Shown here one piece after another: positions 26,835 through 38,744 of a stretch of 43,895 nucleotides of DNA. The translations under genes were made by a program, and so were the position numbers. Position 1 is the first letter of the stretch. Each line of letters starts with the position of its first letter. The notes under the pieces were generated by a model. It made no database searches. It was given only the letters and a program-made list of their open reading frames with translations, and was not told the DNA's origin. The DNA comes from a virus (taxonomy: Duplodnaviria > Heunggongvirae > Uroviricota > Caudoviricetes): the IMG/VR virus record IMGVR_UViG_2548876954_000009; one strand, written 5' to 3'.

Positions 26835-27115
26835 GATATTGTGGTGCTTTTTGTGGGAGTCATCCACTTACGCACTTTGTTTTTCTATACCAGCAGTTAG
26901 CTTCTGCTGTAAAACTATTCATGCAGCAAACCTGCACTTCACCACGATGGTTAGCATACTTTTCCTGATTAAGATCTTGCCAAATATGCTTGCCATTATT
27001 TCATGCATTGAACATCCTTACTTTTTATTAAAGATATCCAATATTCGCCACTCTGTCTGTATCTCCACTCAGGCATCAGCCTTCTTCGTTATCGTATACA
27101 GACGAGCTATGAATT

Positions 27116-27331
27116 TTAATCAGTAATAATGACATTTGCTGCTGCAGGACCTTTAGCACCACTCTCTATAGAGAAGATAACCTTTTGACCTTCAAATAAG
27201 GTTCGATAATTATCATTCTGAATTGCAGAAAAATGCACAAACACATCTTTACTACCATCAACAGGAGAAATAAAGCCAAAACCTTTATCAGCGTTAAACC
27301 ATTTTACTAAACCAGTCATTTTATTTGACAT
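27116..27331 (-). CDS. cspB: Cold shock protein, CspB/CspI-like
   Basis: [23 protein letters not shown]... with RNP motifs; 71 aa. Confidence 0.9.
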
Positions 27332-27631
27332 TCTACATTCCTTAACTTGAGCCTTTCGGCATAAATGATTTGTATAACAGAAACGACTTCGTACTTAATT
27401 GGAGAGACTCAAAGAAGGAATAAGTGAATAACACCTGAAATGAGAACTGCTTTAGTAAACTACTTCGTATATCGTCTGTTCTTCAAACCGACGCAATCAT
27501 TAACGCATAGTTGAACATATGAAGCAATGTTTATTTTAGACATCCAGCCATCTTCAACCCCATCAAAAAACTATAGCTTTCTTCAGGAAGGTGTGTATAG
27601 TGCGCCCAGTTATCAGTATTAAGGAATTTTT

Positions 27632-33685: not shown

Positions 33686-33918
33686 GCTGCACCTCCGAGA
33701 TGCTTCATGTTTTTTCCGGAGCAAAAGGCTATAAGCGGCATACTGATGCGGTAATTACGGCCCAGCGGTTCACAAATCACCTTCTGACATTCACGGTCAA
33801 CCAGGCTAACACGTAGAACATGCCCTGCAGGCGTGGTGTACCACTGCCCAACTGTAGGAATTGATGTTTTTTTACGCTTAAGCAAACGGCAAATATTGAG
33901 GATCAACGGATTAAGCAT
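33682..33918 (-). CDS. Small basic hypothetical protein, translationally coupled to replication gene
   Basis: 78 aa; GGAGGG RBS; stop overlaps downstream ATG (ATGA). Confidence 0.4.
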   Translation of the reverse strand: MLNPLILNICRLLKRKKTSIPTVGQWYTTPAGHVLRVSLVDRECQKVICEPLGRNYRISMPLIAFCSGKNMKHLGGAA

Positions 33919-34747
33919 GACGATGCCCTCCGCGGATATTCAGGAGACGGTGAATATGAAAATTAGCCTTATCCGCCAGACGAATACGTTCAGCTTGCAA
34001 GTTAAGAAGGGTTTCTACCAGAACCTGATGCGCCTGCGGATCCGAAAGAGTTACCTTGCGCAGAGCACGTAGTGCAGTCGTTACATAACTGAGTTTATGT
34101 AAGTCTTCATCATTCAGACGAGTGAGGGCTGGGACAGTAGCCATGATGGCAGCCTCCTTGATCGGTGAAATACTTCCACCACCGGAAACGCCAATTTCGC
34201 TGGTGGTGAACTGAACGGGGTTGGCGTAACCGGTGATCAAGGAAACCGGCGCATCTTTCGATGCCCCCGCCCAGCCCACCATAACTTTGATGTGAGCAAA
34301 TGCGGACGATAAAAAAGACGCTGGCGCGTCATATATCGCCTTGATCAATTCCAGGACGCCAATCCCGGCACCCGCTTTATAAGGTGCCTGAACAGTGTAA
34401 CGTCCCGGAATGGCAGAATCAATGTGCTGGTGGTCCTTCACACTCAACAAAATCACGCCTGAATTTCCACAAAGGACTAAAGCACTCATGCGGGTAGTCT
34501 TTGCGAAGATAGATAACGCGCTGTGTTTCTGGCTCCCAACGAATAACATGAACATAAAGTCCTCTTCCGTCACGAAACCAGCGGTTAAGTTCCTGCACAA
34601 CTCGCCCCCCACAGTCAGGTAAAGTTCTCTGTGGTTACTTACAGCCAGGTGATTTGGTAATCTGCATTCATGCCGTAACAACAGGTGTTCAGCGACGCTG
34701 ACCACCAGCTGTTGCGACAAACGGTTATTTGCCGTTAAACTGTTCAT
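33911..34747 (-). CDS. Hypothetical protein (278 aa) in early-right operon
   Basis: ATG overlaps upstream stop (ATGA); no recognisable motif, no Walker A. Confidence 0.4.
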   Translation of the reverse strand: MNSLTANNRLSQQLVVSVAEHLLLRHECRLPNHLAVSNHRELYLTVGGELCRNLTAGFVTEEDFMFMLFVGSQKHSALSIFAKTTRMSALVLCGNSGVILLSVKDHQHIDSAIPGRYTVQAPYKAGAGIGVLELIKAIYDAPASFLSSAFAHIKVMVGWAGASKDAPVSLITGYANPVQFTTSEIGVSGGGSISPIKEAAIMATVPALTRLNDEDLHKLSYVTTALRALRKVTLSDPQAHQVLVETLLNLQAERIRLADKANFHIHRLLNIRGGHRHA

Positions 34748-35544: not shown

Positions 35545-35623
35545 ATGTACCTCCGGTATACATATTACATGATTGAAATGAACCTTCAAGATACTTGTAC
35601 CTTAACGGTACAAGGGTTTTAAT
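35545..35623. promoter_or_regulatory. OR region: two palindromic operators plus candidate PR (minus) and PRM (plus)
   Basis: Operators ATGTACCtccGGTATACAT (35545..35563) and CTTGTACCttaacGGTACAAG (35594..35614); PR -35 TTGAAG/-10 TAATAT on minus; PRM -35 TTGTAC/-10 TTTAAT with near-leaderless cI start. Confidence 0.5.
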
Positions 35624-35629
35624 TTCGTT

Positions 35630-36304
35630 ATGAAAACAATCCATGACATCCGGCGGTCTAACGCCAGAAAACTGAGAGATGGTGTTGGCGGGAATTCTTC
35701 CTTTGCCACTATGATTGATCGCGAGCCAACCCAGACCAGCAGGTTTATGGGAGATGGTGCTACTAAAAATATCGGTGACAGCATGGCACGACACATCGAA
35801 AAATGTTTCGACCTGCCTGTCGGATGGCTCGATCAAGAACACCAGACAACGAACATCACAAAAAAACCTGATGTTTCAATCACTAATAAACAAATCACAT
35901 TAGTCCCTGTCATATCATGGGTACAGGCCGGAGCATGGAAAGAAGTTGGATATTCTGAGGTTGATTTGAGCACAGCAGAAACGTATCCCTGCCCTGTACC
36001 CTGTGGGGAAATGACTTATATCTTGCGGGTGATAGGTGATTCAATGATTGATGAGTACCGCCCGGGAGACATGATTTTTGTCGATCCTGAAGTACCTGCC
36101 TGCCACGGTGACGACGTTATTGCATTGATGCACGATACAGGTGAAACCACCTTCAAAAGGTTGATAGAAGATGGGACACAGCGTTATCTCAAAGCGTTAA
36201 ACCCAAACTGGCCTGAGCCTTACATTAAGATCAACGGTAATTGCTCTATAATTGGAACTGTGATTTTCTCAGGAAAACCAAGAAGATACAAAATCAAAGC
36301 CTAA
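35630..36304 (+). CDS. cI: CI-type repressor (N-terminal HTH, C-terminal S24 LexA-like peptidase)
   Basis: 224 aa; C-terminal ...VIGDSMIDEYRPGDMIFVDPE... S24 signature with catalytic Ser and downstream Lys (FKRL); divergent from cro. Confidence 0.9.
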   Translation: MKTIHDIRRSNARKLRDGVGGNSSFATMIDREPTQTSRFMGDGATKNIGDSMARHIEKCFDLPVGWLDQEHQTTNITKKPDVSITNKQITLVPVISWVQAGAWKEVGYSEVDLSTAETYPCPVPCGEMTYILRVIGDSMIDEYRPGDMIFVDPEVPACHGDDVIALMHDTGETTFKRLIEDGTQRYLKALNPNWPEPYIKINGNCSIIGTVIFSGKPRRYKIKA

Positions 36305-36316
36305 TCAATGTTTATG

Positions 36317-36340
36317 AACCTGCTTCGGCAGGTTTTTTTA
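36317..36340 (+). terminator. Rho-independent terminator after cI
   Basis: Stem AACCTGC/GCAGGTT, loop TTCG, followed by T7. Confidence 0.7.
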
Positions 36341-36343
36341 TAC

Positions 36344-36380
36344 TTGACAATGTACCCATGAGATACATAATGTACCCAAG
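36344..36380 (+). promoter_or_regulatory. Putative PL promoter with OL operators
   Basis: TTGACA (36344..36349), 16-nt spacer, CATAAT; overlapped by ATGTACCCATGAGATACAT and a second ATGTACCCA copy sharing the OR half-site. Confidence 0.5.
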
Positions 36381-36456
36381 AGAAACAACAAACAGGCAGG
36401 ACGCCCACGAAGTAGCCGCCAGGGGCATATGAAGTCCTGGATGATTCGTTAGTAAC

Positions 36457-36480
36457 AAAAAAAGCGTCGTACAGGACGCT
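36457..36480 (-). terminator. Terminator after the exported-protein moron
   Basis: Stem AGCGTC/GACGCT, loop GTACAG, T-tract on minus strand. Confidence 0.5.
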
Positions 36481-36504
36481 TCGCTCTTTAACAATCTGGA
36501 TGAC

Positions 36505-37020
36505 TTATCGGTCAGATTTAAACTGGGGTTCTGGCAAAACTGGTGGTGTTGAATCTTCAAATCGTAACCAGTGTTCCCAAATATCATGTGTTCGTAATTT
36601 CTGTAGACTAATTTGACGCGATGCAATTGCGGAATTAGTGGTTACTCCACCAGAAGCATCGCTCTCTACTGACGTTGAGGCTTTTTCTACTAATTCTGAC
36701 CAAGCTTCACTTTCTGCGTCAAAAGCTTCTGTTAAGTCCCGCAGACGCTGTGGCTCATTTTTATGGTCTTCCTTCAAACGATTCAAAGCGGCAGTTGAAT
36801 ACTTATTCCTGACCCATTCGATCTGAGTTAGCTGAATCCGCAGACAATTATCTATATCAATGGTTGTGTTCTGAGGCATGTCAGAACAAGAAATATAAAA
36901 GGTCACAACTCCACCGTTCAAACTACTGCCCGGTTCGATTAAAACATTAGAGGAATTTGACGTAGTCGGCAATATTAATGCTAACGACAAAACCACATGT
37001 TTAACAGAAATCGCACCCAT
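36505..37020 (-). CDS. Hypothetical exported protein (N-terminal signal peptide); moron antisense to PL
   Basis: MGAISVKHVVLSLALILPTT... signal-like N-terminus; own terminator; convergent with cI. Confidence 0.5.
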   Translation of the reverse strand: MGAISVKHVVLSLALILPTTSNSSNVLIEPGSSLNGGVVTFYISCSDMPQNTTIDIDNCLRIQLTQIEWVRNKYSTAALNRLKEDHKNEPQRLRDLTEAFDAESEAWSELVEKASTSVESDASGGVTTNSAIASRQISLQKLRTHDIWEHWLRFEDSTPPVLPEPQFKSDR

Positions 37021-37354
37021 TTAAATTGCCCTCTAAAGAACAAGGTCATCCAGATTAACCGAAACCTGGTTATTGGGGAATAACCAAATCCACCTCGCCT
37101 GATGTGGCTAAAAGCAGGCACATAACAGCTAAGTATTTTCAACCAGAGAGAATCCTTAGCGTTGTGGTGAATGCGCAGGCTGATGCGCGAAAGACATTGC
37201 AGCTATTGCGGAAAAGAGCTGTTCGGCGGAGCAATTAAATGCCCGTGAGAGTCTGAAATAACCGCAAGCCGGAGATCAGCATCGGTCACCACAACAGCCA
37301 CTGCTTTGGCGGTACCAGTTTGTACACTTGCTTCCGGCTGGTACCGCTCTTTTT

Positions 37355-37443
37355 ACAAAACAGAGAAGAACATCATCGGACGACGGGCTCATAACCCAAT
37401 CCATCCGGGCGGCGGCCACCACAGGTGTTCTTCTCTGTTTTGT
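37355..37443. repeat. Perfect 18-bp inverted repeat separated by 53 bp
   Basis: ACAAAACAGAGAAGAACA (37355..37372) and TGTTCTTCTCTGTTTTGT (37426..37443). Confidence 0.7.
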
Positions 37444-37491
37444 GGAGAAACTAATAGGCCTTGCAGGGTCGATATGATGAGGAGCAGCAAA

Positions 37492-37854
37492 ATGGCTAGC
37501 GAACGCAGTACTGATGTACAGGCATTTATCGGGGAGCTGGACGGCGGCGTATTTGAAACCAAAATCGGCGCAGTTCTCAGTGAAGTCGCTTCCGGTGTGA
37601 TGAACACGAAAACCAAAGGTAAGGTCTCGCTCAACCTGGAAATTGAACCATTTGATGAGAACCGTGTGAAAATCAAACACAAACTCTCATATGTTCGCCC
37701 AACTAACCGCGGGAAAATTTCCGAAGAAGACACTACCGAAACGCCGATGTATGTCAATCGCGGTGGTCGCCTGACTATTCTGCAGGAAGACCAGGGACAA
37801 TTACTGACTCTTGCCGGTGAACCTGACGGAAAACTCCGCGCAGCAGGTCGTTAA
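37492..37854 (+). CDS. YfdP-like protein (CPS-53-type early gene)
   Basis: 120 aa from ATG 37492 with GAGGAG RBS; first gene of yfdP/Q/R/S-like block. Confidence 0.5.
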   Translation: MASERSTDVQAFIGELDGGVFETKIGAVLSEVASGVMNTKTKGKVSLNLEIEPFDENRVKIKHKLSYVRPTNRGKISEEDTTETPMYVNRGGRLTILQEDQGQLLTLAGEPDGKLRAAGR

Positions 37855-37919
37855 TATCGTTCTTAATAAACTGATTATTTATCTCATCACTGAATATCTT
37901 TGTATAGTGAGGACTTATT

Positions 37920-38744
37920 ATGTCTCAGAACTTAGACGCAACCGCAATTAATCAAATCCATGCCCTTATTTCTGCTCAGGGTGTTAATGAAATTATCAGT
38001 AAGATTGGTGCCGACGCAGTGGCATTACCTGAAAATTTCCGCATTCATGATCTGGAAAAATTTAATTTAAATCGCTTCCGTTTCCGTGGTGCGCTTTCCA
38101 CTGCCAGCATCGATGACTTTACCCGTTATTCTAAAGATCTTGCAGATGAAGGCACCCGCTGCTTTATCGATGCCGATAATATGCGAGCCGTCAGTGTGCT
38201 TAACCTAGGCACTATTGATGAACCTGGTCATGCAGATAACACCGCCACTCTCAAACTGAAAAAGACAGCACCGTTCTCTGCTCTGTTGTCTGTTAATGGC
38301 GAGCGTAACTCCCAGAAGTCACTGGCAGAATGGATTGAAGACTGGGCCGACTACCTTGTAGGCTTTGATGCTAATGGTGACGCTATTCAGGCAACAAAAG
38401 CGGCTGCGGCTGTCCGTAAAATCACGATTGAAGCAAACCAGACCGCTGATTTTGAAGATAATGACTTCAGCGGAAAACGCTCCCTGATGGAGTCTGTCGA
38501 AGCGAAGACCAAAGATATTATGCCAGTGGCATTTGAATTTAAATGCGTTCCGTTTGAAGGTCTGAAAGAACGTCCGTTTAAATTACGCCTCAGCATTATC
38601 ACTGGCGATCGTCCTGTACTGGTTCTGCGCATTATTCAGTTGGAAGCAGTCCAGGAAGAAATGGCTAACGAATTTCGTGATCTGCTTGTTGAGAAATTCA
38701 AAGACAGCAAAGTAGAAACCTTTATTGGTACTTTCACCGCCTGA
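37920..38744 (+). CDS. YfdQ-like protein (DUF2303)
   Basis: 274 aa, [20 protein letters not shown]...; same length as recalled YfdQ. Confidence 0.65.

Follow-up and report, generated by a model that had tools for sequence, protein, structure and literature searches.

What does a prophage gain by keeping, next to its repressor gene and antisense to its early-left promoter, a single gene for a small protein that looks exported? The question is raised by an open reading frame (ORF) on the minus strand of a 43,895-nucleotide stretch of Caudoviricetes DNA (IMG/VR record IMGVR_UViG_2548876954_000009), which we refer to throughout as the window. An initial annotation, made from the sequence alone, had described the ORF as a moron for an exported protein, inserted just downstream of the early-left promoter PL. 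Our analysis leads to much the same description: the ORF very probably encodes an exported moron with an LprI-type fold, carried in a cargo slot beside the repressor gene. As to what the protein is for, we favor, with a probability of roughly 40%, the idea suggested by analogy that it is a stand-alone periplasmic inhibitor of an incoming muralytic enzyme and would thereby protect the lysogen.

The gene and its product

The list of open reading frames of the window places an ATG-initiated frame of 171 codons at 36505-37020, on the minus strand. The elements of the gene are the following.

36505..37020 (stop codon included), minus strand: cargo gene for a 171-residue precursor, placed by sequence, profile and model in a divergent two-cysteine group of the LprI/DUF1311 family
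36952..37020, minus strand: predicted Sec signal peptide (signal peptidase I type), codons 1-23, MGAISVKH-VVLSLALILPTTS-NS, from heuristic scoring
37034-37029, minus strand: Shine-Dalgarno sequence AGAGGG, 8 nt 5' of the ATG, read from the sequence and kept in the E. coli homologue

Comparison with the homologues of E. coli ATCC 11775 and Klebsiella variicola gives a ratio of nonsynonymous to synonymous substitution rates (dN/dS) of 0.10-0.21 at dS 0.95-1.7. This rules out a spurious ORF: the gene is a real prophage accessory gene kept by purifying selection. Its product matches PHROG 7681, a family of unknown function, over the full length (1e-78), which together with the start codon, the ribosome-binding site and the mark of selection bears out the 171-residue ORF as originally drawn. 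Public assemblies contain the identical protein in 74 indexed blocks, an annotated protein of E. albertii is 99% identical to it, and E. coli, Klebsiella and metagenomes have homologues that are 51-65% identical. A copy is found in 138 of 5426 complete E. coli genomes (~2.5%), at ~78% nucleotide identity, and the gene is known only from prophages and metagenomes.

The signal peptide was judged by heuristic scoring of the n-, h- and c-regions against control proteins. The n-region is short and has one lysine (K7). The hydrophobic core, VVLSLALILPTTS, consists of 13 uncharged residues with a mean Kyte-Doolittle value of 2.75 over 10 residues, a figure inside the span of the exported controls (OmpA, PhoA, MalE) and well beyond that of cI, the cytoplasmic control. 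Cleavage sites of the small-x-small type follow residues 21 and 23. The position of this pattern is kept in all full-length family members though the residues differ, and the first 25 residues form a region without confident structure in the AlphaFold2 model (predicted local distance difference test, pLDDT, <50). The signal-peptide-like N-terminus noticed earlier is therefore a three-part Sec pattern with a hydropathy at the level of the controls, and the secretion signal characteristic of LprI/DUF1311 proteins is present and conserved across the clade. Export through Sec, with cleavage near residue 21-24, is probable. A lipoprotein or a membrane anchor was ruled out, there being no lipobox and a hydrophobic core of only 13 residues.

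The family assignment is an indirect one. The Pfam model LprI (PF07007) is matched over positions 1-104 of its 106 at 16.8 bits (E 0.009), short of the gathering score of 22 bits that defines membership. A phmmer search matched PF07007-annotated proteins of Vibrio and Agarivorans, 135 residues long and named as members of the 'lysozyme inhibitor LprI family', at 5e-8 (range to 3e-4), and the similarity is strongest in an invariant C-terminal motif, H-x-IW-x(3)-L-x(3)-DSTPPVLPEP. A profile of the prophage clade recovers at least 215 clusters at 50% identity among 1.84 billion proteins, including P0133, P0134 and P0135 at 5.5e-42 to 8.6e-30; these three pass the Pfam cut-off by themselves, with 33.6, 24.3 and 23.6 bits. 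Relatives in Pantoea, Kosakonia and Sodalis carry the NCBI name 'lysozyme inhibitor LprI family protein'. The window protein is thus linked by transitive homology to bona fide LprI/DUF1311 members.

The family is described as having four cysteines in two disulfides (PMC7933661). The window protein has only C45 and C59, both invariant; where the second pair would be, proteins of the prophage clade have A/S and S/T/L. The nearest clusters, P0133 to P0137, likewise keep only the first pair; since P0133-P0135 pass the Pfam cut-off in this state, four cysteines are typical of the family and not strictly defining. In view of these two-cysteine intermediates we file the window protein as a divergent two-cysteine subgroup and not as a canonical member. 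To judge by their spacing, C45 and C59 would be joined in a local disulfide where helix 1 begins, and the missing pair would have tied helix 2 to helix 3.

The AlphaFold2 model, built on an alignment of 43 sequences (pLDDT 80.5), has a beta-hairpin at residues 31-43, helices at 53-85, 90-121 and 127-152, and a C-terminal strand at 164-169 following DSTPPVLPEP. It reproduces the three-helix bundle of the solved DUF1311 structure, 3GI7, which was also the sole return of a profile search of the PDB by sequence (E 0.029). When set against LprI/DUF1311 as represented by PF07007 and by 3GI7 (P. putida PP0307), the window protein lies below threshold and is without the second cysteine pair; it adds an N-terminal beta-hairpin, specific to its own family and predicted to pair with the invariant DSTPPVLPEP tail, both of them traits of the subfamily only. 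Sequence and model together identify it as a divergent two-cysteine member of the LprI/DUF1311 superfamily, an assignment that agrees with the earlier, hedged guess of a periplasmic or envelope factor. The superfamily and the PHROG of the protein were already known. What is new is the family assignment, the architecture of two cysteines, beta-hairpin and tail, and the orphan, multiply mobile distribution described below; a literature search on LprI or DUF1311 combined with prophage found nothing relevant.

A cargo slot between repressor and early-left operon

The gene lies in the lambdoid immunity region of an SfV/e14-like prophage. A YdaS/Cro-like gene, a CII (CP76) homologue and replication genes are on the minus strand, and the early-left operon reads yfdP, yfdQ, yfdR ... 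xis, int. In order of position, the features of the region are these.

35630-36304, plus strand: cI repressor gene (S24 peptidase, 224 residues, by Pfam), convergent with the cargo gene
36316-36335, plus strand: cI terminator, from the hairpin scan
36344-36371, plus strand: PL, TTGACA-16-CATAAT, 11 of 12 consensus matches
36350-36368 and 36370-36388, plus strand: copies of the left operator (OL), a 19-bp motif
36482-36461, minus strand: intrinsic terminator of the cargo gene, hairpin GAAGCGTCCTGTACGACGCTTT then TTTTGT, 22 nt after the stop codon
36482..36494, plus strand: boxA-like 13-mer CGCTCTTTAACAA on the strand of the PL transcript, between the terminator hairpin and the left repeat arm
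36493..36504, no strand: left inverted-repeat arm AATCTGGATGAC, directly after the stop codon, at the cassette junction
37045..37056, no strand: right inverted-repeat arm GTCATCCAGATT (as read on the plus strand), at the other junction, just upstream of the ribosome-binding site
37080-37052, minus strand: candidate weak promoter TTCCCC-17-TAATCT, its putative -10 overlapping the outer end of the right repeat arm
37048..37160, minus strand: conserved 5' flank, common by pairwise comparison to loci with unrelated antisense cargo
37300-37491, plus strand: nearly invariant structured leader, 5' of yfdP
37492-37854, plus strand: yfdP, first gene of the early-left operon, which PL would have to cross the cargo to reach

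PL directly follows the cI terminator and is by a wide margin the best promoter-like site of the region (12.7 bits, the 99.99th percentile of the window being 9.0). The 19-bp motif, ATGTACC-N6-ATACAT, lies in the PL spacer and again 20 bp downstream, and its other copies in the window are only at the right operator (OR), between cI and cro. There are five matches in 43.9 kb against 0.7 expected, a number that 0 of 100 shuffles reach; this excess and the confinement of the motif to two places identify them as OL/PL and OR. PL points toward and across the cargo in antisense; from its -10 it is 133 nt downstream to the stop codon of the ORF, which is on the other strand. Convergence with cI and the antisense relation to PL, both proposed at the outset, are confirmed by this layout. 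So is the gene's own terminator, which belongs to a 3' flank (terminator plus GCTCTTTAACAATCTGG) conserved across cargo types, in 6/6 aligned antisense-cargo loci, one of them in a Klebsiella prophage whose repressor is different. On the 5' side, conservation of the flank ends ~27 nt short of the start codon. The boxA-like CGCTCTTTAACAA occurs in 0 of 100 shuffles and its core, GCTCTTTAACAA, is kept in all six aligned loci, Klebsiella included; the 139-nt leader of PL shows no unusual degree of structure (z -0.15). We considered and set aside an N/nut system: the boxA-like 13-mer is present, but inspection by eye revealed no convincing boxB hairpin and no arginine-rich N-like ORF.

Between these flanks the content varies. 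Segment 36502-37047 is replaced by unrelated genes in PhiR29_1, SfIV, Kati, SfV and 60+ IMG/VR contigs whose flanks are 90-99% identical. PhiR29_1, for instance, shares 35601-36501 (99%) and 37048-38000 (90%) with the window and has a different gene between them, and SfV is homologous up to 36450 and again from 37090 onwards. SfIV and Kati, PhiR29_1, and SfV each hold another gene in the slot, that of SfV (orf33) alone being co-oriented with PL. The gene is therefore of the kind that is present or absent between genes adjacent in related phages, as morons are, and its base composition also sets it apart: G+C is 41.3%, and 0.33 at third codon positions, against 50.1% for the window and 45-50% for neighboring genes. 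When the cargo is compared with the copy of E. coli ATCC 11775 (window 36505-37020 against L001 5068-5580), dS is 0.95 and amino-acid identity 65%; the flanking genes of the same two loci differ by dS 0.007-0.11, with an identical cI protein (0.007) and yfdP/yfdQ at ~0.1. As far as these sequences tell, old cargo alleles lie within young flanks, and divergent alleles of one cargo are exchanged between nearly identical backbones. The claim of a moron in a repressor-adjacent slot is upheld by the shared flanks, the low G+C and the contrast in dS. The same slot is occupied in prophages of E. coli, E. albertii and Klebsiella with different repressors: the K. variicola copy adjoins a different repressor, and in another Klebsiella-type prophage the copy lies between the early-left genes and the repressor region.

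Inverted repeats mark both junctions in every antisense-cargo locus examined. The window arms are complementary at 12/12 positions, and the window has no further exact copy of the 12-mer; arms are 13/13 complementary in the E. coli and Klebsiella loci, 26 nt (85%) around the PhiR29_1 cargo and 20 nt (75%) around the SfIV cargo, with a different inner sequence. All share the core AATCTGG, and the inner parts are cargo-specific and co-vary. Arms in further loci are at the following positions.

L001: 5053-5076 and 5593-5616
L003: 2693-2718 and 3247-3272
L010: 2193-2212 and 2869-2888
L004: 4965-4977 and 5515-5527

A third, direct copy of the ...CCCCAACAACAA motif is present in the 5' flank of most loci. 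The repeats may be transposon-like ends, sites of recombination or elements that pair the untranslated regions.

A scan of IMG/VR for the motif of the 3' flank yielded at least 120 loci, of which 102 offered sufficient sequence for a judgment. A repeat-bounded unit of 350-830 bp could be delimited in 66 of the 102, and the longest ORF is antisense in 63 of these 66; the 36 others have no recognizable partner arm by the criteria used, so the repeat architecture is frequent and not universal. Soluble proteins of 98-148 residues form the largest cargo family (27 loci, within the series L028-L147), followed by proteins of 155-175 residues with a coiled coil and a zinc ribbon (CxxC...CxxC; 18 loci) and by membrane proteins of 148-166 residues with two transmembrane segments (13 loci). 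The LprI-like cargo accounts for 3 loci and one disrupted copy (L073), and the remainder are a 160-residue protein with four transmembrane segments and singletons. Three of the other cargo types, SfIV_36, the PhiR29_1 cargo and SfV orf33, have no PADLOC match and match only PHROGs of unknown function. On this evidence the slot takes one gene at a time, and the antisense cargos that alternate in it belong to several unrelated families. The repressor-proximal hotspot and the moron concept are already established (PMC8585504); the antisense slot bounded by inverted repeats, with its interchangeable cargo, is new.

How does this slot relate to the classical ones? The neighborhood of cI is already known as a hotspot, with rexAB and bstA among its genes (PMC8585504), and lambda rexAB, sieB and BTP1 bstA occupy the same zone of mosaic diversity between cI and the early-left operon, as single genes that end in a terminator of their own. 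Both rexAB and bstA are found downstream of cI and read in the same direction, and bstA is presumed to share the promoter of the repressor (PMC8585504); the window cargo, in contrast, is convergent with cI and antisense to PL, needs a promoter of its own, and is bracketed by inverted repeats. It has no sequence similarity to rexAB, sieB or bstA, so that the parallel with rex and sieB drawn in the initial annotation survives for position only. The rexAB, sieB and bstA proteins are not known to be periplasmic. Same-slot cargos include small membrane proteins with two or four predicted transmembrane segments, and relatives of the window protein exist as fusions to TonB_C or to Sel1 repeats, modules of protein-protein interaction in the periplasm. 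These facts, and a repressor-adjacent position typical of exclusion and defense genes (PMC8585504), could be read as signs of superinfection exclusion or envelope modification that involves no enzyme inhibition, with the protein blocking the ejection of DNA across the periplasm or masking a receptor or transport component. We hold this to be very unlikely, as the protein is a predicted soluble bundle without a membrane anchor and has no similarity to known Sie, Imm or Cor-type proteins in PHROGs, PADLOC or Pfam.

Outside prophages, the closest relatives are from marine Vibrio, Psychromonas and Marinomonas. The closest four-cysteine relative, from V. parahaemolyticus (L005 4862-5564; also L006 and L007), is a single-gene cassette between ~130-nt attC-like repeats in a superintegron array. 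That array also carries a TseH effector gene with a small gene downstream, and HEPN/AbiV and acetyltransferase cassettes. Relatives in Agarivorans, Neptunomonas and Marinomonas lie among unrelated small genes. Kosakonia and Sodalis have an identical protein in different chromosomal places, often beside the gene for a 200-residue tyrosine recombinase, which suggests that it sits on a small mobile islet. In these loci (L022 6077-6115, L026 6764-6802) the relative is 163 residues long, and a perfect palindrome of 14-15 nt, CATACTCAAATCTC(C)/(G)GAGATTTGAGTATG, marks the start of the recombinase gene; an invertible promoter was considered here and dropped, only this short palindrome being seen. We looked as well for a linked partner gene in the marine and enterobacterial relatives, and found all contexts to be orphan. 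The protein behaves as a self-sufficient mobile unit.

One could envision, on this basis, a slot that works as a port for cassettes. A conserved weak promoter with its 5' flank and a terminator with its boxA-like 3' flank would frame one antisense gene, and at least five unrelated, real cargo families would rotate between functional inverted repeats of 12-26 nt. The repeats could be recombination or insertion sites for cassette exchange; they could also be a clamp between the 5' and 3' untranslated regions, or an RNase III site, coupling cargo expression to PL activity. In a transcript starting upstream of the right arm the two arms would pair the untranslated regions, and in a transcript that reads through from PL the antisense cargo would be looped out between them. 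The LprI-like cargo would then be a free-standing periplasmic inhibitor of muralytic enzymes that moves among prophage ports, integron cassettes of Vibrio and islets linked to a recombinase; lysogens would owe to it an orphan immunity to type VI secretion system (T6SS) muramidases or a Spackle-like exclusion of phages. We regard this scheme as unlikely. The other cargo families, five or more of them without known function, offer in any case a compact natural screening set of candidate lysogen-protection genes.

Proposed function and its competitors

The DUF1311 fold has one recurrent and partly tested role, that of periplasmic immunity against peptidoglycan-hydrolyzing T6SS effectors. The DUF1311 protein Etsi4 rescues the periplasmic toxicity of Etse4, a T6SS effector of enterohemorrhagic E. 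coli (EHEC) (PMC12981562). Genes for LprI-domain proteins that bear a signal peptide neighbor those of lysozyme-like, LysM/transglycosylase and pesticin-type T6SS effectors, and they also occur as orphan immunity genes (PMC9796082, PMC8867033, bioRxiv 10.64898/2026.08.01.741415, PMC12135965). A phage precedent is the Spackle protein of T4, a periplasmic inhibitor of the gp5 tail lysozyme that acts in superinfection exclusion (PMC7677548). The immunity role of the fold and the Spackle precedent are what lead us to favor a stand-alone inhibitor. The mature product would be a soluble periplasmic three-helix bundle of ~147 residues and would act alone, as a stoichiometric binding or inhibitor protein of the 'orphan immunity' type. 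Its target would be a peptidoglycan-degrading enzyme that reaches the periplasm from outside, be it a competitor's type VI effector, of the lysozyme-like or the transglycosylase kind, or, as with Spackle, the muralytic enzyme of a superinfecting phage.

The DUF1311 immunity proteins are also small and signal-peptide-bearing, are thought or shown to neutralize peptidoglycan hydrolases acting in the periplasm, and may be orphans; Etsi4, with 18.7 bits, likewise stays below the Pfam threshold. Spackle too is phage-encoded, small, periplasmic and made with a signal peptide, and the proposed shared logic is the blocking of an incoming muralytic enzyme (PMC7677548). The window gene differs from those of the T6SS immunity proteins in being prophage-borne and not on a T6SS island.

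Several observations weigh against such an inhibitor. No effector, lysozyme or T6SS gene is adjacent in the 12 contexts examined, nor does the gene stand beside an effector or in an island with T6SS, hcp, vgrG or paar genes as a cognate immunity gene would, so that it is an orphan at most. A specific assignment to the Etsi4 type had to be rejected: hhalign gives the family profile a probability of 0.4% against EHEC Etsi4 (ECs_0213), and the window protein is no closer detectably to Etsi4 than to any other DUF1311 protein. The NCBIfam and PADLOC libraries hold no match to it. ScwA, the only DUF1311-only protein tested for protection from lysozyme, gave none, and the activity of M. tuberculosis LprI is attributed to its MliC domain (PMC7933661); an MliC domain is absent from the window protein. 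The gene is missing from 50,697 sequenced phage records searched with tblastn and sensitive blastn. Finally, its expression in the lysogen, which had been proposed with the original description, is not supported by a promoter of consensus quality. A 9-of-12 scan for sigma-70 sites found none upstream of the ORF on the minus strand; the best minus-strand candidate (7.2 bits) lies in a non-conserved segment, and the candidate in the 5' flank, both hexamers of which are kept in 38 distinct 5' flanks, scores 5.4 bits against 12.7 for PL.

These last findings bear on a deflationary explanation, in which the gene has no function in the lysogen and is a silent or lytic-cycle passenger of a cassette bounded by inverted repeats. 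The failure to find a consensus promoter would fit, as would the disrupted IMG/VR copy (L073) and the minority status of the LprI-like gene (3-4 of 66 cassettes). Set against this are the strong purifying selection over dS >=1, the conservation of ribosome-binding site, signal peptide and terminator, and the antisense orientation to PL, which makes lytic growth the least likely time of cargo expression. We consider it the least probable of the explanations discussed here. If, instead, the protein serves the lysogen as an inhibitor, its expression might run as follows. With PL kept shut by cI, the gene would be read from the weak promoter in the 5' flank and transcription would end at the gene's own terminator; upon induction, transcription from PL would cross the cargo in antisense and should silence it.

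ScwA deserves attention in its own right as the only experimentally studied stand-alone LprI-domain protein of enterobacteria that we found in the literature. This Salmonella Typhimurium protein is periplasmic, disulfide-bonded and horizontally acquired, controls the levels of MltD and has no role in lysozyme resistance (PMC7933661). The window protein, which has the same fold and the same predicted compartment and is likewise from a horizontally acquired gene of Enterobacteriaceae, might by this model act on the host's own cell-wall enzymes, changing how abundant or how stable lytic transglycosylases or other peptidoglycan enzymes are and so remodeling the envelope of the lysogen, with effects on fitness, stress tolerance or virulence. 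We find this quite unlikely. ScwA is chromosomal and has 275 residues, four cysteines and a C-terminal LprI domain, whereas the window protein is prophage-borne, consists of one domain with two cysteines and has a different tail; moreover, a modulator of the housekeeping type fits poorly with a gene that is an integron cassette in one place and an alternative cargo of a prophage slot in another.

The family name itself invites a different proposal. 'Lysozyme inhibitor LprI' goes back to M. tuberculosis LprI, and a protein predicted to be periplasmic, in prophages of animal-associated Escherichia and Klebsiella, might be a factor of lysogenic conversion that, in the manner of Ivy, MliC/PliC and PliG, inhibits animal lysozyme and helps the bacterium to withstand the c- or g-type enzyme of the gut or of phagocytes. 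That is very doubtful, given the findings on LprI and ScwA cited above, the marine origin of the closest non-prophage relatives, and the fact that the protein has no Pfam match besides LprI and none to the MliC, Ivy or PliG families.

Should the protein indeed inhibit an incoming cell-wall hydrolase, it would represent a prophage-borne orphan immunity or exclusion factor built on DUF1311, a fold of poorly defined biochemical role, and would link lysogenic conversion by phages to contact-dependent warfare among bacteria. Without such an activity the gene stays an ordinary, well-documented moron. Fishing for the target and work on the structure should present little difficulty, since the proteins of this family are small and soluble, have one domain and end in an invariant motif.

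Other elements of the prophage

The leader that precedes yfdP (37300-37495, plus strand) is nearly invariant in seven phages and has two long hairpins, with a minimum free energy of -80 kcal/mol and a z of -5.8; an 8-bp GGUACCAG/CUGGUACC stem is followed by CUCUUUUU, and the second stem is ~25 bp long. It has no Rfam match, and a scan of 36250-37550 against Rfam gave no meaningful match either. The leader may be an attenuator, a terminator or an antisense-RNA element controlling the early-left operon. On the minus strand, matches at Rfam gathering level to the C4 antisense RNA (34199-34286, 82 bits) and to isrK (34311-34387, 64 bits) lie inside a 278-residue ORF (33911-34747), which an identical locus calls a Phage_ASH protein; the region 34199-34387 looks like an isrK/C4-type RNA module within the early-right region. 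Also on the minus strand, the cspA thermoregulator is matched over its full length (27074-27492, 157 bits), a sign that a gene for a cold-shock protein, together with its 5' untranslated region, is part of the prophage. A gene for a 339-residue DUF4365 protein (41381-42400, plus strand; G+C 35%) adjoins the integrase gene. With weak PADLOC matches to an Argonaute-associated restriction endonuclease model (9e-9) and to PDC-M02A, it is probably a second accessory or defense gene of the prophage.

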